64,000 nt of DNA from Squalus acanthias (Eukaryota). Location: the NCBI GenBank assembly GCA_030390025.1, contig CM059431.1, forward strand, positions 113,956,001 through 114,020,000, given 5' to 3'. The notes below the pieces were generated by a model that did not search any database, was not told where the DNA came from, and was given only the letters and a program-made list of their open reading frames with translations. Positions 6,795-56,664 of this stretch are shown here, one piece after another (the first letter of the stretch is position 1; every line of letters starts with the position of its first letter). The position numbers and the translations under genes are program-made.

Positions 6795-7785
6795 TCTCAT
6801 TATCTTATTGCTGTTTGTGGGACCTTGCTGTGTGCAAATTGGCTGCTGCATTTCCTACATTACAACAGAGATTTTGGGCTGGATTTTACCAGCCCTGAGG
6901 AGGCGGATTTGGAGGCAGGACTGCTGGGAAAGTCAAAAAGAATGGGAGCGGGTCCCGAACCCGCTCCCAACCCGCCTCCATACAATTTTCCCGGGAGTTG
7001 GGTCCCCGATTTGCGCAGGGACCCGACTCCTAGCGGCGGGAAGAGGATTATAGCCACTTAACTGCTTGTTAACAGGTAGTTAACAGGCAGTTAAGAGGCT
7101 TTTCCCAATTTGTCCACTGCTGCTGCGGGCTTCCCGACATCGGGGAGGTGTGCTGTGGGTCTGTTGTTGTGTTGGTGTTTGGATGACAGCTGCAGCAGTG
7201 GTCTGAAGGATGCAAAGTGACAATGGTTAGTATCAGAGGTAAGGAAATGTTATGAAAGTAATTTTTATTGTGATTAGATTTTTCTGCAGGTGACAAGCTG
7301 TGAAGTGTTTGTGTAGCCTCATCTCATCAGGAGAAGTGACAGATGGCTTCTGCAATCTCAGCTGCAGCTGCCATCTGTTTTATCCTAAAGATAGAGTAAT
7401 TGGAGAGCCTGGGTACAAGGGCTCACCTTTGGACAGTGATTGTCAATGTTTGACAGCACCTCAATGCTGTCAAACACTGTCAAATCATCTGTCAAACACA
7501 TGTGGTGCATATGCCTTTAAGAAAACCGACAGATGAAGCGTCATCAACTGACGTCATCTGACACCGGCTTTCCCTTAATTGGCCGGCAAGCCCGCAGGGC
7601 AAAATAGCGTCTGTTCATCAGACGTCGCTGCGGGCGGGACTAGAACCCGGAAGGCAGCAGTCCCACCTCCAACGCGCCTCGGTAAGTAAAATCCAGCCCT
7701 TTACTTCAAAAGTACTTAATTGGCTGTAAAGTACTATAGGACGTCCTGAGGTCGTGAAAAGCACTATATAAATGCAAGTCTTTCT
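6795..7785 (+). mobile_element. SINE 3' half (SacSINE1/Deu-SINE-like), split by the 6876-7699 MITE
   Basis: ATTGCTGTTTGTGGGACCTTGCTGTGTGCAAATTGGCTGC...TACATTACAACAG, then the MITE, then ACTTCAAAAGTACTTAATTGGCTGTAAAG...TATATAAATGCAAGTCTTT. Uninterrupted copies lie at 20715-20931 and 46865-47062. Confidence 0.75.
6876..7699 (-). mobile_element. Harbinger-derived MITE (824 bp) nested in a SINE
   Basis: Perfect 14-bp TIR GGGCTGGATTTTAC with TTT on both sides. Subterminal 7500-7600 resembles the reverse complement of 30495-30575 of the full-length element. The flanks rejoin into a continuous SINE 3' half. Confidence 0.85.
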
Positions 7786-10200: not shown

Positions 10201-11013
10201 GGCCGGAATTTTCTCAAGGGAGGCGGGTTGGCCTCCGAGGCAGGCGGGAAACCCGAGAGGCCAGGTTTCCCGCAGGCCCTGCCGACTTTAACGGCAGGGC
10301 CTGATTTTGAACGTGAGGCCTCGGATTCCCATCCACAGCCAGCCAGATCGAGAGGCTGACTGGCTGCAGGTGGGTAAGCTTCAGAAGCGAGGGGCCAGTC
10401 CAGGGGAGGGAATCGAGGGAGGGGAGTCGCCAATCGGTCGGGGATCGGGGGAGGGGGGTCAGGGGGTGGAAGAGGATCAGCAGGGGTCGGGGATTGGGGG
10501 AGTGGGGAAGAGGATCGGCAGGGGTTGGGGATCGGTGGTGGGGGGGGGAAATCAGCTGGGGAGCGGTGGTAGAGAGAGGATCGTGGCCAGCCTCATCGTC
10601 GTCGTTGGGGGGCGGGATGCCTGGGAAGGCGATCAGAGGCCTCGCAGTGGGTTAGGCAGGGACCCTGGATCCAGGAGGTAGGTATAAAGCCACATACCTC
10701 CTGGATGCAGCAGTCCCCCCCTCTGTTTAACTGCCAGGTTTCACAAATTGTGTGAAACCTGTCCACAGGTAGTTAACCACAAAATGGATGGGGAAAAAAA
10801 GGTTTCCAGCCTCATTACAATATTTAAATTGAGGTAACGCCCCCTGGGAGTGGGTTGGTCGCCCGCCCGCCCGCCCGTCCCGCCTCCGGCAAAACAGAAA
10901 GTGGGTGGGTTGGAGGCAGGGATCAGGTCGGGAATCCCACTTTTAACACATTAACTGTCCCCACACTCCAAGCCCACCTGTCTTTTTTTTTTAAAAAGGG
11001 GAAAATTCCGGCC
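10201..11013. mobile_element. Harbinger-type MITE (813 bp) with a G-rich core
   Basis: Perfect 13-bp TIR GGCCGGAATTTTC / GAAAATTCCGGCC and non-coding interior. Internal blocks are shared with the 21188-21956 element. Confidence 0.8.
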
Positions 11014-11015
11014 TA

Positions 11016-12681
11016 GGTCGCGATTTACCCGACCTCAGCGGGTCCGTGGCAGGCAATGTCGGGGACAGGTCTCGGCCCCGCTACTGGCTCCATCCTGGCC
11101 TCCAAAATGACTTTGATGATTAGGCTTGTTAAGCCCACCCAGCGCATTTGCCGGCCAATTGAAGGAAGCGGGTCTGGGGATGTCATTTGATGACGCGTCA
11201 TCAGCCGGTTTCCTTAAAGGGGCCATGCCCAAATTTAGTTTGACATTTGTGCTGTCAGTGTTCTACAGCATTGAAGTGCTGCAAACACTGCACAGAGGTG
11301 CACGGCTGCACCCAGGCTCTCACATGACTCCCTCCATATGCTTATGGAGGGAGTCACAACACACAGGGAGGTCCTCTTCCCTTCCCATGGGTGGAAGAGA
11401 TCTCCCCAGAAGACCAACGTAGCCTGGTTGCACATTGCACAGGAGGACACAAGCAGGGATGTCGTCAGGAGGACCAGGCTGCAGTGGTGCAAATCTTTCA
11501 ATGATCTCAGTGGAGCACAAAATGTTACTGCAAAGCCACATTCAACCTCATCCTGCTGTGCCACTCATCACATCCCCATCACTATGCCTTCCCTACCCTA
11601 CTCCTGCACATCCTTACTCACACCAAGTTACCTTGCACCTCCACCCATCCCTCTCTATCTAGATTATCACATTTCCATCTCACTAGCTACCCCTCACACT
11701 CATCCTATTGCAATCATACCAACTAACAACACAGACAAGGGTAGGCACTTAAGTGCTTTAGCCAATGGAAGTGGCTTAGTGAGTTGCAGTGAATGGGGAG
11801 ACATAACGGTACCCCCCCCCACAATGGTCATGAGTGTGAAAGGAATGGCTTGGGCATTGTAGGGATGTTTTATGTTGTTGGTATGGGGTGGTGCCAAGCT
11901 GGCACATCATGTGGCAGCCAGGGTGTGCAATGTCAAGTGAAGTAAATGTGGCCATGGTGAGGCCATCCCTGGCCTCCCAGGCAGCAATGTGGTCAGGTGC
12001 TAATGCCCTCTGTCCTGTGCAGCATCAGGTGATTGCAGAGAAGGTTGGTGTTGTTGTTGGTGCTGCTGGTGTGCCTGGTGCTGCTGGCGTTGGGGCTCAT
12101 CGTGGTGGGATTCTAATGACCAAGGTGAGAGTGTTTCAAGGTCACCCATGCTGATGGAATAGATGGCAGGTGAAGTAGAGATGACAGAAGCGATGTCAAT
12201 GGTGGGAGAGGTAATGAGGTCAGACTGGATGGAGACTTGTGTAAAGACTTGCAGCATCCTGAATCTGTAGTGGAAATGCAGTTTAGAGAAGCTAGTGGTT
12301 AAGGGAACATGTCTCAATCAGCTGGGAGCTTTGACTTAACATTTGAAGCTGTCAACTCATCAGCTGAAACAATGGCCACTGACCTCCCGCCTCAGCTTCA
12401 CAGATGAGGTCTAGGCACAGTGGGAAACCGGTGGGCGACCTGTCAAATCCAAAAAGCTGGGGAAAAAAGCATTGTTAAGTGGTTGTAAACAAGCCACTAA
12501 TGATTGGAATTGGGTCCCCCACCACTGCCTGTCGGGTCTGCTCAGCACTGGCAGACCCAACATTGGGAAAGTCCAGCGTGCGCATTTTGACAGCGGGTTC
12601 CTGACCCACTGTCAATAATTTTAAATTTAACAGCTGACCCACCACCCATCCTATCTGCGGAGTGCTGGCAAAATTCCGACC
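11016..12681 (+). mobile_element. Internally deleted non-autonomous Harbinger element (1666 bp)
   Basis: Ends are GGTCGCGATTTAC and CAAAATTCCGACC, with a CTA duplication (11013-11015, 12682-12684). It keeps a Myb exon-1 remnant (REVLFPSHGWKRSPQKTNVAWLHIAQE...FNDL, about 11340-11510). It also keeps the transposase N-terminus on - (PWSLESHHDEPQRQQHQ...PDAAQDRGH, about 12150-12000), homologous to the 34092 ORF. Confidence 0.85.
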
Positions 12682-13424: not shown

Positions 13425-14232
13425 ATACTTGGGCTGATAAGTGGCAAGTAACAGTCACATCACACAAGTTTCAGGCAATGACTATCTCCAACAAGCAAGA
13501 GTCTAACCACCGCCCTTTGACATTCAACGGCATTATCATCGCTGAATTCCCCAGCATCAACATCCTGGGGGGTCACCATTGACCAGAAACTTAACTGGAC
13601 CAGCCACATAAATACTGTGGCTACAAGAGCAGGTCAGAGGCTGGGTTTTCTGCAGCGATTGTCTCAGCTCCTGACTCCCCAAAGCCTTTCCACCATCTAC
13701 AAAGCACAAATCAGGAGTGTGATGGAATACTCCCCACTTGCCTGGGTTAGTGCAGCTCCAACAATACTCAAGAAGCTCGATACCATCCAGGACAAAGCAG
13801 CCTGCTTGATCAACAGCCCACCCACCACCTTAAACATTCACTCCATCTACCACCAGCACACCGTGGCTGCATTGTGTTCCATCTACAAGATGCACAGCAG
13901 CAACTAGCCAAGGTTTCTTCGGCAGCACCTCCCAAACCCGCGACCACTACCACCGAGAAGGACAAGGGCAGCAGGCGCATGGGAACACCATGTAGCAAGT
14001 TCCCCTCCAAGTGACACACCATCCTGACTTGGAGGTATATCGCTGTTCCTTCATCATCACTGGGTCAAAATCCTGGAACTCCCAACCTAACAGCACTGTG
14101 GGAGTACCTTCACCACACGGACTGCAGCAGTTCAAGAAGGCGGCTCACCACAGCCTTCTCAAGGGCAACTAGGGATGGGCAATAAATGCTGGCCTTGCCA
14201 GCGACGCCCACATTACAGGAATGAATAAATTT
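13425..14232 (+). mobile_element. Non-LTR retrotransposon 3' fragment (RT C-terminal region and 3' UTR), decayed
   Basis: Translation ...AGQRLGFLQRLSQLLTPQSLSTIYKAQIRSVMEYSPLAW...KKLDTIQDKA is typical of the post-RT region of CR1/L2/Jockey-group ORF2. It has internal stops and ends in AATAAA and ATGAATAAA. Confidence 0.8.
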
Positions 14233-27688: not shown

Positions 27689-30639
27689 AGCACCTCGTTT
27701 AATTACATCCCCCTGCTGGCGGATCGCAAAATGGTCCTAAGGGTGGCCATTGCAGATGTCCACGGTCTAGAGCATCTGGTCCGTCAGTGAAGCAGGCGCT
27801 TGGGCATGTTGCACAATGAGAAACAAATTGGAGGGACAATATCAATCGTAAAAGTGAATTTTGTATTGTTCACCAAGTCAGTTGCAGCCTGCCTTCTGTA
27901 ACCCTATGGCATTCCTACAGTAGAAGTAATGGTTATTAAAGATGAAGCTGTGAAGCTCAGTTCTCAGAGGGGTAGTGCACTTCTGTCAACCTACATCAGC
28001 TTTGTTTAAAAATAACCACTTACAAAAAAAAAATCTAAGTTACGCAACTTTCACGTTTCATGATAACTATTCTGTGTGTTGGCATCAAATGATTCCGTAG
28101 CATTTAAATAATTAAAAATAATGTGAAGGCACTTTCTGTGAAGACTAATGCGCATTGAAAAGCTTTTGTTGTATAGATATTTGATTAAATGGCAATTCTG
28201 GACTGTATCTAAAGTCGCTTTATAACAAAGGACTGAGTTAATTTAGAGAACAGGAAAAACTGCATCGCATTTTCATTAGGTGCTGATTTATAAAACACAT
28301 TTGCAGCAACTTTCGAATAAATTTTAAAATTAAAGGCTGTCTTGCAGCAGAAGAGGTGCACAGTTATGGGATTATGTTGGATAATGCCTCAAACTAACTA
28401 TGAGTTGGACAAGACTCACAAATAATAATCAGATCTCTTTTCCTCAAGTTTATTTAAGTCTGCAAGGCATTTGAAGTGCTGATCTGACTGGCGGGTGGCA
28501 GGAGTACAATATCACTGTCATTGGATCTAGAAAGTGATATTTCGATACCTGAATGCACTGGGAGGATGTTAATGAAGGTGCTTAATGCTGTCATTGGCAG
28601 TAAGACAATCCAGGGCAGAAAGAGAAACAGAACTCGGATGTGGCTTGCAGTGTGGTTTATAATATTCAATTTAAAAAAAAAACTCAGGCCTCCAGAGGGG
28701 CTAGTCAGAAAAACTGTAGACAGATGCTATGAACCCTGGAGTCCACTGCAAATGCACTCAGGTCAGGCAGGAAGGTTAGAGCCACATTGCTGTATAGAAA
28801 TGAACAGAGAAGTACTTTGGACTTTTATGACCTCAACAGGAAATATGTAGATTATTTCCCTTTAAAATCACAAGCTTTGATTATACTTCGAGAGCATTAA
28901 TGTTCTCTGAAATAAAATGGCACTTACCCTTTTTTGAAATAACATTTTGATTTCTAAATACTGTTTATGCAGTAAATGATTCTTATAAGGACTGATTTTT
29001 AAGAAATGCATTGGTTAAATCAGCTGCAACTAATGCTTTCCACCTGCTAGTAAGTCAAACATTTTTCTGAAAATTAAGAGCATGCAATATTATATTGTTT
29101 GCATATCAAATTTATGTGATTAAATCATTAATGTTACAAGATAATTGAAAGAATTAGAGCAAATATCCAATCTCACGTAGGAAACTAGACTCAGCTGCAT
29201 GCTGATGCAATGTCCGTTATTGGCTTAATGTAAGCTATGACCAATAGCATCAAATTAAAATAAACAGGCTGCATATCTTAATATACCAGTTGCTATTGCA
29301 TATCGCAGGCAGCTTACAACAATTAGGTGAAACATGTAAGGCACTGAATGTTGGTACCTGCTAGTTAAATATATATCCACTGCAGTTACCATGCTGGTCA
29401 TAAAAAATGCAGATAGTAAAAAAGGTTAAACCTTTTGTTAGACAAATGTGCTTTACTTTGCAATAGCTATGAATTGAAGTTTTATTCAGTCTGTGTAATT
29501 CCACTTCATGTTGCTGTCACTCTCTACATAGCTTTCCATGAAATCACCTTTCATTTGGAGAAACGATTCTTTGGAGCTTTTAGATTGTGGCAGTCACTTT
29601 AATTACAAGTCCCTGACATGGGCACACTGTGAAAAAAGGCATATTGAAATGTGATTAACATTATTTTTATTGCAGAATCTTATTTTTTTCCACTGTATTG
29701 ATTTTTGTTATGAATATTATTATATAAGATGTGCTAGAAGTGAAACACTGAGTGAAGGAATAGGTAAGAATTTTGATTATGTTTGTTTAGTAGCTTCCCA
29801 CTTGAGGGACTGAAACCCCGTCAGCCACCTTCATGAGTGCTGATGTTCTCGGATAACCTTTTCAGGATGGTGGTGGCATTTGTTTGCTGGCATTATATAC
29901 AAAAATGGAGCTGGCAAATTGGAAATGATAATTAGAGGGCTAAAGTGTATTGTGTTATATAAGCCCCTAAAGCTCACATCCAGAGTCTCTGTGTAATAAA
30001 AATAACCTACATACAGTTACTACATCTAACAATAGGACTACAACTGTAAGGGTTACATTATTTTCTCATGGATTTCCAACATTATCTGATAAGATGGAAA
30101 GGGATCATTTCAAATTAACCTCTTAAGGAATGCAATGCAATTTCCATCTTCTCGCGGGAAATCAGAAATATCAAAAATGAACATCGTCTATTTTGTTTCT
30201 GCACTTATACTAATCACTGGTGATCACTATTTTGAAAGGAACAGGGACAGCTGACAGTGTAAATTAAATGTTTTAAAACAAGAACAAGATAGCACAATTA
30301 ATGAAACAGGAATATTTTGAAGTCTGAAAATGTCACACGACACTCACAGACTTAGGCCGCGATTTTGCCTACCTGGGCGGCTCCAAGGCGGGCGAGGTCG
30401 GCGGGGGGCGGGGGGGCGACCCCGCTGCTGTGTGGATCCCGTCCATAAATCGAATCTTGCCCTAATAGGCCTTGTTAGTCCCGCCCTACGCGTTTCCCGG
30501 CCCTATTAAAGGGTGCGGGTCTGGTGACATCACCGGATGACGCGATTATTGCCGATTTATTTAAAGGGGCCATGGCCCCAGTTACTGTCAGTTGCAAATT
30601 GATAGCATTCAGTGCTGTCATTGTTTGAGTCTCTGCACT

Positions 30640-32546
30640 ATGAGCTTGCAGCACCAATGAGCAGCACCTCGCTTCACAGATGAGTCCCTCCATCATCTTG
30701 TGGAGGGAGAGAGAGCACGTAGGGAGATTCTCTTCCCTGCGGACGGCAGGAAGAGGCCTCCCCAGCAGACGAAGGCAGCGTGGCTGCAGATATCGCAGGA
30801 GGTAACAGGGCTGTCAGTGGTGGTTCGCACCTGGGTGCAGTGCCGCAGGAGGTTCAATGATCTAGTAAGATCAGGAAAAGTGAGTATTAAGCCACAATTA
30901 CCTTGATGCTGCTGTGCGTCTCATCACATTCGCACCACTCTACATTGCCACCCCTACTCCTGCACAATGCTACACAGCTCAACATCCCTTGTACCTTCAT
31001 CCATCCCGCTAACTCTATCTACATTATCAGGTTGTCATCTTACTATGCAGCCCTCACACTGAGCCTCATCGTTATGCAATTACAGCAACTAACTTGGTAT
31101 TGCCAACCACCTCCATCAAATTGTCAGTGTAAAGCTCTATGCCATTCCATTCCTTACACTCATACCATCACTCTCACTGAACCTTCTCTTCTTTCCCTCC
31201 TTGCAGGAAAAGATAGCCCACAATAAGAGGGAAAGGGCGAGAACGGGAGGAGGGCCTCCACAAACCATGTCATATCTGGCGAGTGCAGAGGAGGCAGCAC
31301 TGGAGATTGCTGGAGTGGTGGACGTTCCGCAAGTGGGGGACGGAGAGAGGGGCTCAGTAGAAGAAGCTGGTGACAGAATAAATTTCCATACAATTGCATG
31401 CCTTTCATCATTGCCTCATATGGGGTGTGATGTCAAGACAAGATGAATGCTCATCATGTGGATAATGGTGTCTGCAGTAGACATCCTGTATATCTAACTG
31501 ATGTCTTCACTCTCCCACAGGTCCATCAAGAGCTCCCCCAATGTCCAGGAGCAACAACAAGACTCCTCAGAGGAGCCTCCTGCCTCTGAAGGTGCAGCAT
31601 CAACTCAGACAACACAACCCAGCACCAGCGCAGAGTCGCACACCTCGGTGGGTATGTCACGAGATAGTGTTGTCACCTGGCGTCTCACAGATCACAACTG
31701 AAGCAGCAGCAGATGGTGGAGACATTGACAGCAGTGGAGACTCCTCATCGGAGGGCGCAGGAGTCTCCTAGCTCTGCTCAGCTGCATGCAGACGCTGAGC
31801 CTCAGGGGCCATCCAGGAAGAGGGCAATCCTGGAGCTGCAGGAACAAGTGCAGGAGGCTCTGACTGGTTTTGCGACCATGGTGACTGCGAGTGTGCAGAG
31901 AATGGAGGAGTCCATCTCCAGCATGAGCAGCACCGTGGCACAGTCACTGGCATCTATAGCTTCCTCCATGGATAGGATGGCCACCTGCATGGAGGAGACA
32001 CGGCACCAGTCACATGAGAACATGTTTTCTCTTCAAAATAGATGCTCATCTATGGAGGAGAGATGGGGAAAAATGGAGGAGAGATGGGCATCTATGGAGG
32101 AGAGAAACCAGAGGCTCATTGACGTCCTTTGTAGGAGGGATGTCAGTATAGAGGTGGGCCCTCATGGCCCCACTGAAGTGCAGCAAGGTGCTCTCCAGCT
32201 ACTTGCTAGCAGGGAAGTGCTGGTGGCCCATGAGAGGGATGATGGTGAGAGGGGACATGGAAGTGGGGGCTCCGCTCCAAGCGCACTGACTTCCACCCCC
32301 TTGCCAACCCCTCGGTCAGAGCCCCAGATGCCTCCCTGGACAGTGATGGCCGATTCTGCGCATGCACAGTCGCAGGGGGAGCAGACTTTGGCGGAGCCAT
32401 CAGTGGCTTCAAAACCCAGAGGACGATCGCCAAAGGTATTTAAGCAGGTGCAGCATGGAGATGAGGAGGCTGCCTCTACCTCTGCTGAAGCCGCAGGGGT
32501 AGCACGACGTAGAAGCACCAGGAAAAGGAAGATACCACACAAATAG
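30640..32546 (+). pseudogene. Harbinger Myb/SANT-like DNA-binding gene, 3 exons (30640-30879, 31207-31369, 31521-32546), disrupted
   Basis: Exon 1 reads MSLQHQ*AAPRFTDESL...AAWLQISQEV...RTWVQCRRRFNDLVRSGK|gtgagt (trihelix Myb/SANT). Exon 2 is ttgcag|EKIAHNKRERARTGGGPP. Exon 3 has a coiled coil and a basic tail RRSTRKRK. There is an in-frame TGA at 30658-30660 and apparent frame switches at 31520-31713. AATAAA lies at about 32616. Confidence 0.85.
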
Positions 32547-32898
32547 TCACAAAGGTAGTCACTCGGGTGTGTCTTTCTTCATCAATGTCATGTTAGTATT
32601 CTATGAAGTGCTGTTAATAAATCATCTAATTGTCACACTTGGAGGTCCTTGGCAAATTTGTGTGATGAAATGGAAGTGGCAGAGTGAAGGGTCAGGGCCC
32701 ATTTCACACCCAGCAATGATGGTGAGAGTCAAAACAAGGGACGAATCATTGTTTGACTGCTGAATGGTGTTGGTGTTGGGTGATGCAAACCTGCATACGC
32801 GGGTGGCAGCCACATGTATGAACTGCATGAAGTTACTGAAATCTGCCATTGATAAGGGTATCCCTGACGTGACGGGCAGCAACGTGCTCACGTACTGG

Positions 32899-34092
32899 TC
32901 ACAATGGGACCACCAGTTCATCCAGGTGTTCCTCATCCTCATCACCAACTTCATGGTGAGCCTCCTCGTCCTCATCTTCCTCGTCCTCCAATGAGGCAGT
33001 GCGCTCAGCAGCATCTTCCTCATCCAGTACTAATCCTCGCTGCTGCGCTATGTTGTGCAGGGCGCAGCAGATGACGACTATTCGCGAGACCCTAGCTGGT
33101 GCATACTGAAGGGCTCCTCCAGATCTGTCGAGGCATCTGAAGCGCATTTTGAGCAAACCTATTGTCCGCTCGATGACACTTCTCGTGGAGATGTGGCTTT
33201 GATTATAACATCCCTCAGGCTCATTTGTTGGCCTCCTCAAAGGTGTCATGAGCCACATCTTCAGGGGATAGCCCTTGTCTCCAAGCTGCCAGCCGGCAAG
33301 ACTGTTTGGCGGTGTGAAGAGCTGAGAGACAGTGGAATGGCGCAGGATATACGAGTCATGGCAGCTGCCAGAGAACTTGGCGGACACATGGATGACAAGC
33401 TTCCTATGGTTGCAGACTAGCTGAACGTTGAGGGAGGGGAAGCCCTTGCGGTTCACAAATGCTACTGGGTTGTGATGGGGTGCCCTGATGGCGACATGTG
33501 TGCAGTCAATGACTCCCTGCACCCGTGGGAAGCCAGCTAGAGTGGCAAAGCCAAGCGCACATTCATTGACACTGGCTTCATCAGTGGCAAAATGAATATA
33601 ATTTGCAGACTTGTTAAAGAGGGCATGGGTTACCTGTGCGATGCATCTGTGTGCGGCCGACTGCGAGATGCCGCAAAGATCTGTTGTAGATGCCTGGAAG
33701 GAGCCTGAGGTGAAGAAGTTGAGGGCAAGGGTGAGTTTGACAGCCACTGGTAAGGAGTGTCCACCCCTTCCTCTGGGCTGCAGGTCTTGCTCCAGTAAAG
33801 TGCAAATGTCAGCGATGACCTGGCGCGATAGCCTGAGCCTCCTTTGGCACTGCTGCTCCGTCATGTTGAGGAAGCTCATCCTCTGCCTGTATACCCTGTG
33901 TTGGGGGCATGAGCTCTGACGCGGTGCAGCCCTGCGCTGATGCCCTATGCCCTGTGCAGCATCAGGTGGTTGAGGAGAAGGTTGGCGCTCTTGTTGTTGC
34001 TGCTGGTGGTGGTGTGGCTGGGTCTGCTGCTGCTGCGGCTGATCGTCATCAGATTCAAAGGACCAAGGTGGCAGAGCATAAATCATGCCCAT
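32899..34092 (-). CDS. Harbinger (HARBI1-like) DDE transposase, 397 aa, probably truncated by a premature stop (ancestral end at 32833)
   Basis: HTH-like region ([14 protein letters not shown]) and catalytic motifs [16 protein letters not shown] and [16 protein letters not shown], plus [23 protein letters not shown] and CCALHN. Past the TGA at 32901-32899 the frame continues PVREHVAARHVRDTLINGRFQ* to 32833. Confidence 0.92.
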
Positions 34093-36199
34093 TCTGATGA
34101 TTCATATGGCAGGTGAAGTTCAGATGACAGAACCAATCTATCAAAGGTTAGATATGATGTTGCAAGGAGGTGACAGTGAATAGAGAGTTTACTGCAAACA
34201 CTTCACAAATGCATAAATCTGTTCCAAATACTCAAGCCTGACGCTTCAGAGAGTGGAAAGTGACCAGCTGTAAAATGGCAGGTTTTAAACCGCTTTTGCA
34301 GCTGTCACCTATTGAAAGAAATGGAGAGCGATGGGAACCTCATGGAAAACTTGGGAAAATACTTTGCGCCTGCTAAAATGGTGAGTAAATTGGTTTAAAC
34401 ACCCTCTCAACTAGCACAATGGAATGACCCGCCACTTAGTGCTGTGTCTGCAAAGCGCAGGCAGAACTGGCACTAGGGAAACTTCAAAGGAGGCGGGTTC
34501 AGAGCGGCATACCGCCCCGCTGTCAATCATTTGGATTTTGACAGCAGACCCGCCTCCGAACCCGCCCTCTTAGCGCCACCAAAATTCAGCCCTTAGTGTG
34601 CCTGCAGTCAAATAGCTCGCCACACTGTGTAGTCAATCCTTTGATAAATCAATTTTGCTTCCCCTTTAATATAATAATTCTGATTAGTACTGATATCATC
34701 TAGTTTACTTTAGTCCTGTGCCCATGTAAAAGTTATTCAAATATAATGACCTGCAAGAATGTAATACACTAAATAAGGAATCAGTACCGTGCAAAAAAAC
34801 CCTTCTTGCATAAGCTCCATTTATTTCTGCTGAGTAAAAATGTAATAAATGTAATACCACCATAAAAGTGGTAACATTTATATTTATTTAGCTACCCCAT
34901 TGCTTTGAAGTGTTGATTCAGTTTAATTATTAAACCACGAAGGTATTTCTTGACTGCTGCATCACTCCCAGCACCAAGATTTATCAAATCAACAACATTC
35001 ATTAAATGTTCAAAGAGGAATCAGTTGACCACAAAAAAATTCTCAAATAGGCTCATTAGTGCAAAAATGTTTTTTGAACCTGATACTAAGCCAGCAGTAT
35101 ATGATTATGAGCAGGGCTTTCACACAGCAGAGAGAGAGAGTGTCACCTTTCTGACCACCTTCTTTCCTCTCTTCTGTATCTCCTCATAAAATATTTACTG
35201 TTGATTCTGAATGACCATCCTCATTATCCTTAGAATTCCTTTCAGATTCCCCAATGATGTCATGGAAATGTTAGACCCATTATGTTAAGGTAAAACTACC
35301 ATCTACAGTGACCCCCACCCCCATCATGGCATCTTCTGGGGACAACATATGAATTTCATCACGAGACACAATTGAAATATATAGCCCATGAGCTGCTTAC
35401 CAAGAACAGCATAAAAACTTACACTGTATATTGAATCTATAATATTAAATGCAGTATGAATCAGAGTTCTACAAAATTGTAATTTTCAGATTTTGATGTG
35501 AGGGCGTGCACTCAAATAAAACTAATGTCTTCCTCTGAAATCATTCCTTGAATTTTTTATAATTAGTAAAATTATCACTGCTTGCTTACCTATGTATGTA
35601 TGTCACGGTAATTCTTCCATCTATTACATCTCATTAAAACTGTCAGATTAGTAGAAGAAAGCGGTGGATTCTGGCCCAATGTATTGTATGCAAATGCTGG
35701 CCTCGTACCAGCAAAGAAGTGTATCCATTATAGCAGCACATGACCAGGGTAATGGAAAAATATGCAGCTTGCTTTTGGAGTTTCCACTTTGAAACCAGTT
35801 TCAAGCTGCTCCAGGTTCTCTCAATCACAACTCTGCTGAAGCGCAAAGAGTGCATTATTTACACATGACCCAATTTCCAGTGCAATCAGGACTCTTAAAA
35901 CGTTCACAATGTTTGTGGATAAAGCTGCAAATTAAATGACATACACAAAACTGGAGGTGGAACGTGAAACATAAAAAATATCCCTATCAGTGGTCACAAA
36001 CTTACAAAGCAACTTGTTTAAAGTGGTGGTTTGATTATGCAGTGCACAAAAAATAGCTTTCCACTAAAAGAGGGCATGCAATAGCTTTTCTTTTTGTCAG
36101 GTGCCTAAATACCTTCACTGAACGATAGTGCACATGTAAATAGGACAATTGATATTTTTCTGGGAAAGCAATAAGGTTTATGAGCTATACATTAAAAAG

Positions 36200-55373: not shown

Positions 55374-56372
55374 CTAGTGATTGGCGGAAAATTTCATTCG
55401 TTTCTGCTTCTGTCTTTGATTGCAAAACCAAACCCGCACAACGTTCTTTTTGAGGTCCAGTTTCTCCGCGATCGCCGCGATCTTCTCCGAGGACGGCCGG
55501 GGCTGCACGGCGAAGTAAGCCTCCAGCGACCGCTTCTCGGGGGCGGCGATCGAGGTCCGTTTGCGCTTCTTCTCGCCGCCGTTGAAAATGTCAGGCTTGT
55601 TCATCTTCTCCCGGTGCGCCCCCTCCGCCTCCTCCAGCCAGGCTTGCAGGATGGGCTTGAGGGCGATCATGTTGTTGTGGGACAAAGTCAGCGACTCGAA
55701 CCTGCAGATGGTGCTCTGGCTGAGCGAGCCCACCCCGGGGATCTTCAGGTTGGCCAGCGCCGAGCCCACGTCGGCCTGGGTCACGCCCAGCTTGATGCGC
55801 CGCTGCTTGAAGCGCTCGGCGAAGGCCTCCAGCTCCCGCGGATCGGCGTCCACGTCGCTCAGGGAAGGGATGCCCGAGGCGGCGGCGTGTCCGACCAGGC
55901 CGTGCGGGTGAGGGGTCAGGCTGAGGGCGGCCTGGTGGTGGTGCTGGTGGTGGTGGTGGTGCTGGTGGTGGCCCAGGTGGCTCAGGCTGTGCAGGTGCCC
56001 GGCGTGGGGGTGCGACGCCGTCGAGACCACCCCGCCGCCCCCGCCGCCGTCGCCTCCTCCTCCTCCGGCCATGGCCCCGGCCAGGCTCAGCGAGGACGAG
56101 CTGAGGTGGTCGATGAGCTCCCCCGGGTCCAGAGCCTGGTGAGGCTGGTGGTGGTGGTGATGGTGGTGGTGGTGAGAGGACAGGGCGGACGGGTGCGGCA
56201 GGGGCACGGTCGAGGTAGAAGTGCAGGGCACGCTGTTCATGGTGTGGTAAGTGGCATCCGGCTTGAACGGGTGGCTCTTGCCCTGGGTCACTGCGATATC
56301 CACGGCTGCCAGAGCCTCGGCGCGGGCCAGCAAAGTTTCATCTAAGCTGGCGAATATATTGCTCTGCAATTG
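55374..56372 (-). CDS. POU4F1: POU4F1 coding exon 2: POU-IV box, His/Gly tracts, POU-specific domain and POU homeodomain
   Basis: Acceptor is tctgtgtttctgacag|CAA. Motifs: FASLDETLLARAEALAAVDI (POU-IV box), DPRELEAFAERFKQRRIKLGVTQADVG...ICRFESLTLSHNNM (POU-S), KKRKRTSIAAPEKRSLEAYF...VRVWFCNQRQKQKRMKFSA (homeodomain). QGKSHPFKPDATYHTMNSVPCTSTSTVPL and the MKFSA end favour paralog POU4F1 over POU4F2/POU4F3. Confidence 0.95.
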   Translation of the reverse strand, partial: QLQSNIFASLDETLLARAEALAAVDIAVTQGKSHPFKPDATYHTMNSVPCTSTSTVPLPHPSALSSHHHHHHHHHQPHQALDPGELIDHLSSSSLSLAGAMAGGGGGDGGGGGGVVSTASHPHAGHLHSLSHLGHHQHHHHHQHHHQAALSLTPHPHGLVGHAAASGIPSLSDVDADPRELEAFAERFKQRRIKLGVTQADVGSALANLKIPGVGSLSQSTICRFESLTLSHNNMIALKPILQAWLEEAEGAHREKMNKPDIFNGGEKKRKRTSIAAPEKRSLEAYFAVQPRPSSEKIAAIAEKLDLKKNVVRVWFCNQRQKQKRMKFSANH

Positions 56373-56664
56373 CTGTCAGAAACACAGAGAGAGAGAGAAG
56401 AGAACATGATCAACAAGCTAATTCTCAATAGGGAATACAGACACATAACACAAAAAAAAGCAATTTAAACCTTCAAAATGAATACAGAAAGTTACAATCT
56501 TGCAAGGCATAGAAGTTGCAAATTTTGCAAGGCATAGAGATGGTGGCTTACATGAGCAGGGAAAAAAAACATTTAAGCAGCATTTGTCAAACGATGCCTT
56601 GCAGCGCTTCTTATTCCACATGCACAACAGATACAGAGAGAGAGAGAGGGCGATAGCTACATAC
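56373..56664 (-). other. POU4F1: POU4F1 intron (292 nt, GT-AG, phase 0)
   Basis: GTATGT donor, a (CT)n polypyrimidine tract and a CAG acceptor. Splicing joins ...PAPP|QLQSNIF... in frame at the known POU4 intron position. Confidence 0.9.

Follow-up and report, generated by a model that had tools for sequence, protein, structure and literature searches.

Transposons of the PIF/Harbinger (PHIS) superfamily studied in rice and zebrafish need two interacting proteins, both of them required for movement (PMC9710019), and one of them, Harbinger3_DR of zebrafish (also named NuwaI-2_DRer), has been resurrected from dead copies (PMC8151067; further accounts in PMC9710019, PMC9179366, and supplement 1 of PMC4482050; all statements with a citation rest on the accessible parts of these sources). 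Here we describe a Harbinger element of 4238 bp, flanked on each side by TTA, at positions 30355-34592 of a stretch of 64,000 nucleotides from the genome of Squalus acanthias (contig CM059431.1, positions 113,956,001 to 114,020,000), which we refer to as the window. With a probability of about 0.88, we read it as a copy of a two-gene PIF/Harbinger transposon that has kept its full length but is disabled, one of an estimated 200 to 300 in its family and likely derived from a single long-past burst in a shark lineage that was followed by decay free of selection. The family is part of a large radiation of shark Harbingers, and the window copy is real, dead, and ordinary.

In length, Harbinger3_DR (4204 bp) is close to the element described here, and the two have in common a DDE_Tnp_4 transposase, a Myb_DNA-bind_5 protein, short terminal inverted repeats (TIRs), and a 3-bp duplication within a longer palindrome. 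Compared by description, the zebrafish proteins are 221 amino acids (aa) for Myb and 343 aa for the transposase, vs 478 (predicted) and 419 aa here. The Harbinger3_DR target, AAACAC-CWG-GTCTTT (PMC3016246), has an alike ACAC flank but a CWG core, unlike the relaxed core found here, and a further difference is the weak pairing of the ends of this family, limited to 10 of 15 bases in the majority. The NuwaII group (Han et al. 2015, PMC4482050) is similar in its DDE and Myb/SANT reading frames, in ends beginning with GG, in a 3-bp duplication flanked by C and G, and in transposases of ca. 410 to 480 aa in turtle and amphioxus families; it differs in that a TNA core is present in only 12 of 78 sites here and C adjoins the duplication in 61 of 118 flanks. 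No cartilaginous-fish family was found among the rows of supplement 1 of PMC4482050 that were examined.

Among cartilaginous fishes, papers on the genomes of the whale shark and the grey reef shark include Harbingers in their lists (PMC8455134, PMC12498223), and a survey that called for more species did not detect them in the elephant shark (PMC9179366). We found no description of shark Harbinger families in the literature searched, outside of which lay subscription journals, Repbase Reports, and Dfam. At the protein level, the best database matches are “putative nuclease HARBI1” entries of sharks and rays (Pristiophorus, Heterodontus, Heptranchias, Carcharodon, Scyliorhinus, and others), with 50 to 71% identity to the window transposase, in agreement with the chondrichthyan context proposed by a first-pass annotation of this DNA. 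These entries are automatic gene annotations and not described transposon families. In a quick tree of 57 rows, the window transposase grouped with three Pristiophorus proteins with 100% support in the Shimodaira-Hasegawa-like approximate likelihood ratio test (SH-aLRT).

Two genes, their ends, and their lesions

To delimit the element, its genes, and their original state, we relied on comparison with other copies. In a search of the genome with the transposase DNA, the best 40 of 10,954 candidates were scored, which gave the window copy and 39 further loci with 83 to 95% identity, most of them near full length. A 22-letter pattern of the left end matched the genome 109 times (reversed control, 0); 40 of these loci were fetched, of which 35 gave >1400 aligned bases and 5 were dropped, for a total of 75 copies including that of the window. 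The pattern was found in 12 of 25 left-ended copies, which puts the family at roughly 230 to 300 copies, an estimate to which some matches from more distant relatives contribute.

The set of features found is that of a PIF/Harbinger element: a DDE_Tnp_4 transposase with its catalytic triad, a Myb/SANT reading frame, short TIRs starting from G(G), and a 3-bp duplication. The transposase frame, on the minus strand and convergent with the Myb gene, matches DDE_Tnp_4 (PF13359) with an E value of 2.1e-36. Its triad (D196, D272, and E308, with 35 residues between the last two) is preserved both in the window copy and in 50 of the 75 copies. The family majority is an open frame of 419 aa, interrupted in the window copy by TGA at codon 398, where 25 of 35 other copies of the young subfamily have CGA and 4 have TGA (43 and 9, respectively, among 65 copies). 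Besides this stop, the window transposase has 38 missense differences from the majority, among them H219P, P241S, L269Q, and A128T at sites that are conserved in 50 homologues (H or Y in 46, P in 47, L or I in 48, and A in 43). The stop removes the last 22 residues, including R, L, I, and F conserved in 39, 27, 31, and 33 of the 50 homologues. AlphaFold modelling of a sister copy without the stop predicts this segment as a helix with predicted local distance difference test (pLDDT) scores of 95 to 96, preceded by an acidic linker of low confidence. Given that the lost terminal motif is conserved and predicted to be helical, the truncation likely matters for the transposase. Two to three copies have lesion-free transposase genes; L035 and L049 are open, each with missense changes, and L049 is without the second D. 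Searches of solved structures gave no match by sequence and none by fold at E 0.001, the weak rows being other DDE transposases.

The Myb/SANT gene is predicted to be spliced from three exons. Its first exon matches Pfam Myb_DNA-bind_5, and the GT and AG dinucleotides of the four splice sites are kept in 55/60, 56/61, 58/60, and 56/59 other copies, i.e., in >90% of the copies, as well as in most of 15 sister-family copies. In contigs of four sequencing runs whose RNA nature is only a guess, the joint of neither intron was among the 15 of 29 joints listed, and some of these contigs continue unspliced through intron 1, which speaks neither for nor against splicing. A search for longer database proteins containing exon 1 found none among 32 candidates at E 1e-12, which is weak evidence. 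The family majority has an open frame of 478 aa across the three exons, as does copy L110, which holds the one lesion-free Myb gene among 50 of full length; in the sister families, copy L193 has a Myb gene without stops across 472 codons. In the window, codon 7 is TGA, where 19 of 29 other young-subfamily copies have CGA and 6 TGA; over 58 other copies, CGA is found in 26, AGA in 17 (only in older subfamilies), and TGA in 6. Exon 3 adds a 1-bp loss in the C-run near 31535-31539, a 5-bp loss at 31664, and a 1-bp gain at 31701, together with an in-frame 3-bp loss at 31558, so that the coding length is 1429 vs 1437 nt, and the frame read past codon 7 meets a stop near codon 218. The C-run at the start of this exon (31530-31540) is a hotspot of slippage, with 25 of 50 copies out of frame there. 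The C-terminal RRSTRKRK, judged by its sequence, is likely a nuclear signal.

The codon census across copies confirms that Arg is ancestral at both TGA sites and that the TGAs are recurrent CpG transitions.

The element boundaries were established by comparison with the other copies. The left end (GGCCGCGATTTTG) and the right end read on the opposite strand (GGGCTGAATTTTG) pair at 9 of the first 13 bases, and a repeat search of the sequence did not recover the TIRs because this pairing is too weak. Among 43 other copies with both ends, the 3-bp duplication is exact in 24 and has one mismatch in 11, and its sequence varies from locus to locus. The GGCGGG/CCCGCC motifs at both ends are, by analogy, candidate Myb binding sites. 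Private deletions of 9 bp at 34214 and about 41 bp at 34326 lie in the right subterminal region. All coordinates are collected in Table 1.

Table 1. Features of the Harbinger element, in window coordinates
Feature	Position	Strand	Basis
Left target-site duplication TTA	30352..30354	.	Sequence
Left end, imperfect TIR of GGCCGCGATTT type	30355..30369	+	Start common to other copies; left-end pattern matches
GC-rich subterminal region with GGCGGG/CCCGCC motifs and presumed Myb promoter	30370..30639	+	Motif list
Myb/SANT exon 1, 80 codons, TGA at codon 7 (30658-30660)	30640..30879	+	Pfam PF13873, E 1.5e-9; codon census
Predicted intron 1, GT..AG, phase 0; private 18-bp deletion at 31090	30880..31206	+	Copy alignment
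Myb exon 2, KIAHNKRE..TGGGPP, end of the Myb domain	31207..31369	+	Copy alignment
Predicted intron 2, GT..AG, phase 1	31370..31520	+	Copy alignment
Myb exon 3, acidic linker, coiled-coil-like part, basic C-terminus RRSTRKRK	31521..32546	+	Copy alignment
Harbinger transposase, 419 codons and stop; TGA at codon 398 (32901-32899)	32833..34092	-	DDE_Tnp_4 match; copies
Transposase upstream region and right subterminal GGCGGG motifs	34093..34577	-	Copy alignment
Right end, imperfect TIR of GGGCTGAATTT type	34578..34592	-	Type also on abundant 1.7-1.8 kb non-autonomous relatives
Right target-site duplication TTA, then GTGTG of the palindromic target	34593..34595	.	Junction bridged by contigs of organisms B and D

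Much of what the first-pass annotation had proposed for this structure holds: the TTA duplication, the intact triad and convergent orientation of the genes, and the two TGA codons in place of Arg, which arose by CpG decay and are not native. The copy collection and consensus that it had suggested gave a majority open in both frames, Myb exon 3 included. Its TIRs do exist, but they are weak and their limits depend on the copies, and its three-exon Myb gene agrees with the Pfam match and the conserved splice sites, with splicing remaining a prediction. A working sequence can be reconstructed from the majority, as it had expected, but the window copy is more broken than it described. Instead of a single stop, the Myb gene has three frameshifts and an in-frame deletion as well, and these, with the missense changes of the transposase, leave much more than two stops between this copy and function.

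Target sites and linked copies

Reading 118 flanks outward from the duplication, we found C in 61, A in 75, C in 69, A in 96, and C or G in 97, a profile that corresponds to a palindromic target, S-ACAC-nnn-GTGT-S, with a relaxed core. Within the duplication, A and T prevail, and 33 different triplets occur in 78 left flanks. This profile fits none of the duplication-defined groups in the accessible part of Han et al. (PMC4482050). TNA, the rule for the classic Harbinger group (PMC12477816), appeared in 12 of the 78 left flanks (TTA or TAA in 7), and the CWG of NuwaI in 1. For the C-TNA-G target of NuwaII, both the flanking C (61/118) and the TNA were too infrequent, and Pangu, with ANT (6/78 here) and a second reading frame without known domain, differs also by the Myb domain present in our family.

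Copies located near each other showed a pattern of their own. Among the 780 pairs formed by 40 young copies, six share 9 to 24 rare variants and all others 0 to 4. These six coincide with the full set of pairs located on one contig at a distance of <3 Mb, a number reached by none of 200,000 shuffles. The sets of copies sharing variants, each on one contig and 0.04 to 2.9 Mb apart, are L033/L043, L041/L125, L051/L069, L040/L067/L121, L031/L055, and L044/L049. Segmental duplication was considered and rejected as their source, as in 7 of 7 pairs the similarity extends no farther than the ends of the element and the flanks differ. Since some sets share variants along the whole element (L033/L043 and L040/L067/L121) and the sharing in others (L051/L069, L041/L125, and, across subfamilies, L031/L055) is patchy, the linked copies suggest that local hopping, which is common to cut-and-paste elements in general (PMC3016246), and ectopic conversion both contributed.

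The window copy has a possible partner of this kind in L031, located 5 Mb away on the same contig, and it may be that the copy was already Myb-defective before it moved, mobilized in trans as a non-autonomous element that either descended from L031 or gave rise to it. Common to both are the codon-7 TGA, the 3-bp and 5-bp deletions of exon 3, and five rare substitutions, and the other linked pairs have 9 to 24 rare variants in common. We consider this history rather unlikely, given that the two copies differ at 160 other non-CpG sites and that both deletions lie within 110 bp, where a short conversion tract explains them. Moreover, the 3-bp deletion is also present in L055, of another subfamily, and a 5-bp deletion at the site of the second recurs in L103, on another contig. 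Either common descent or a short conversion tract is possible for the variants that the window copy shares with L031.

Decay, age, and selection

The first-pass annotation had pictured a fairly young family silenced by methylation, in which the window copy would be two CpG changes away from function. Both of its stops are indeed CGA>TGA changes, and the window copy is the sole one of 60 in which the transposase is broken only by such a stop. In the whole family, 27% of CpGs have decayed to TG or CA, at 5 times the rate of C>T at non-CpG sites. We carried out a census of lesions in 60 full-length transposase and 50 full-length Myb genes, in which the frameshift counts depend on the alignment. 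The 489 disabling lesions comprised 312 frameshifts, 133 other stops, and only 44 CGA>TGA stops (9%). None of the 41 copies with both genes full length was free of lesions, the window copy has five, and the closest pair among the 75 copies is 3.8% apart, a picture that differs from that of an active autonomous element. CpG decay is a record of methylation in the germline and does not show what inactivated the family, so that silencing by methylation is left unsupported. Together with the three Myb frameshifts, the missense changes at conserved transposase sites, and an insertion that predates two species splits (see below), the census makes a young, methylation-silenced family very improbable.

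As for age, the divergence of the window copy from the majority is 17.5% for CpG and 2.5% for non-CpG sites; over the first 40 copies, the median is 3.7%. In the tree, 40 copies form a star, with terminal branches mostly of 0.02 to 0.04 (non-CpG), that sits on a ladder of older subfamilies. In organisms B and D, contigs cover the last 52 letters of the element at its right end and continue into the flank, where they differ at 14 of 859 and 27 of 846 letters, respectively. A contig of organism C reaches 27 letters into the right end, below the threshold of 31, and was not counted. Because the right junction is bridged in both B and D, the insertion is older than the splits from these two species, against the youth first assumed. 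At the mutation rate of the epaulette shark, 7e-10 per base per generation (95% interval, 1.4 to 14.1e-10; PMC10587355), a divergence of 2.3 to 3% would roughly correspond to tens of millions of generations, with the rate borrowed from another species.

Differences between the subfamily majorities show constraint, with ratios of nonsynonymous to synonymous change (dN/dS, unweighted count) of 0.19 to 0.38 in the transposase and 0.20 to 0.36 in the Myb domain, while private changes are neutral. For the latter, omega was 1.09 in the transposase and 1.02 in Myb (35 copies, with the spectrum taken from the non-coding parts) after removal of 5 sister copies, CpG columns, and 162 recurrent columns; the Myb values used an exon-3 start one base off, which affects ca. 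7 codons. Purifying selection on the transposase copies, which seemed present at first (omega of 0.59 unweighted, and 0.77), was rejected, as it disappeared once shared and recurrent sites were removed.

Several observations weigh against an ancient burst followed by neutral decay of a two-gene element. In 8 of the 43 copies with both ends, the duplications differ at two to three bases. Premature stops in the transposase number 18 vs 39 expected under the neutral model, a deficit that is unexplained, and the first test of selection, which counted shared variants, gave the omega of 0.77 with a p of 3.5e-6. The left junction was uncovered in organisms B to D at 95% likeness. The alignment covered only 75 copies of a family estimated at a few hundred, so that a younger or intact copy may have escaped it. 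Finally, the splicing of Myb is predicted, and its interaction with the transposase is assumed by analogy with Harbinger3_DR.

On the minus strand at 55377-56375, ca. 21 kb from the element, there is an open frame with a POU domain, a homeodomain (PF00157 and PF00046), and a His run, which is likely a POU4/Brn-3-type gene. That the element is a domesticated gene pair or a regulatory element, acting for example on this gene, has the slightest probability of all, despite its orthologous presence in other species and the recurrent domestication of Harbingers in vertebrates (PMC9392472), given that both genes are broken, the ends and duplication are retained, the divergence at non-CpG and CpG sites is like that of its siblings, and omega of the window copy is not different from neutral; for the proteins, domestication is refuted. 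HARBI1, NAIF1, and MSANTD1-4, derived from the same two protein types (PMC9392472, PMC9710019), are single-copy genes under purifying selection without ends or duplications, whereas here we find a multicopy, end-bounded, and broken element, with none of the marks of a domesticated gene (a single copy, an intact frame, purifying selection, and absence of ends).

Relatives, mechanism, and meaning for shark Harbingers

A protein search (104 scored of 143,996 candidates) detected many sister families with 71 to 80% amino-acid identity. The unlike ends are inherited in the family and in its sister families; in L193, L200, L202, L204, L205, and L207 (sister families with 75 to 79% DNA identity) the two end types are on swapped sides, and L203 carries one type at both ends. 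A 28-letter pattern of the right end matched the genome 680 times. Most of the 20 matches examined were in relatives of 1.7 to 1.8 kb, some enlarged by insertions, that retain Myb exon 1 and the right end and are without the transposase core.

Our preferred reading of the window element, as a dead two-gene copy, implies a mechanism that can be sketched from Harbinger3_DR (PMC9710019). The spliced Myb/SANT protein would bind the GC-rich subterminal motifs, carry the transposase into the nucleus, and load it on the ends. The D-D-35-E transposase would then excise the element and integrate it, through cuts staggered by 3 bp, at palindromic S-ACAC-nnn-GTGT-S sites. After insertion, copies would have mutated at random, with methyl-CpG deamination as the likely source of the two TGA stops among many lesions. 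The machinery of this family or of its sister families likely mobilized the more numerous 1.7- to 1.8-kb non-autonomous elements that share its ends.

Other sequences of this type were seen in the window and in the databases. At 6876-7699 lies a miniature element of the Harbinger type, 824 bp long, which has TTT on either side and near-perfect GGGCTGGATTTTAC ends. A decayed non-autonomous relative, with Myb exon 1 (54% amino-acid identity) and only the start of the transposase, is located at about 11013-12190 (+). An open frame at 13521-13904 (+) resembles by eye the C-terminal part of ORF2 of a long interspersed nuclear element (LINE), with no Pfam match at E 0.001. Several groups of shark and ray HARBI1-like proteins (P0003/P0005, P0004/P0007, P0014/P0023, P0015/P0020/P0042/P0062, and P0024/P0025) are 76 to 90% identical across species, and most are without the catalytic E or a D, which makes them candidate domesticated genes. 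A similar frog group (P0091, P0092, P0097, P0102, P0104, and P0114) is 85 to 92% identical.

A target chosen by its palindromic flanks (ACAC-nnn-GTGT) with little regard for the three duplicated bases, unlike ends that swap sides between sister families, and megabase-scale local hopping might together define an undescribed group of Harbingers in this shark lineage, a proposal that we regard as tentative and doubtful at present. If it were true, a rebuilt consensus would be a two-component vertebrate transposon with a targeting unlike that of Harbinger3_DR, and the grouping of the superfamily by its duplications would break.

By itself, the window copy adds nothing beyond its family, and its value resides mostly in the family-level observations on target and linkage. 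The biology of Harbingers in cartilaginous fishes is thinly described, and shark genome papers, in their accessible parts, only list the elements (PMC8455134, PMC12498223). The family is a large and well-preserved radiation, the working sequences of which can be read from its copies, and its palindromic target with a relaxed core would bear on the classification of these elements and on the comparison with the targeting of Harbinger3_DR.

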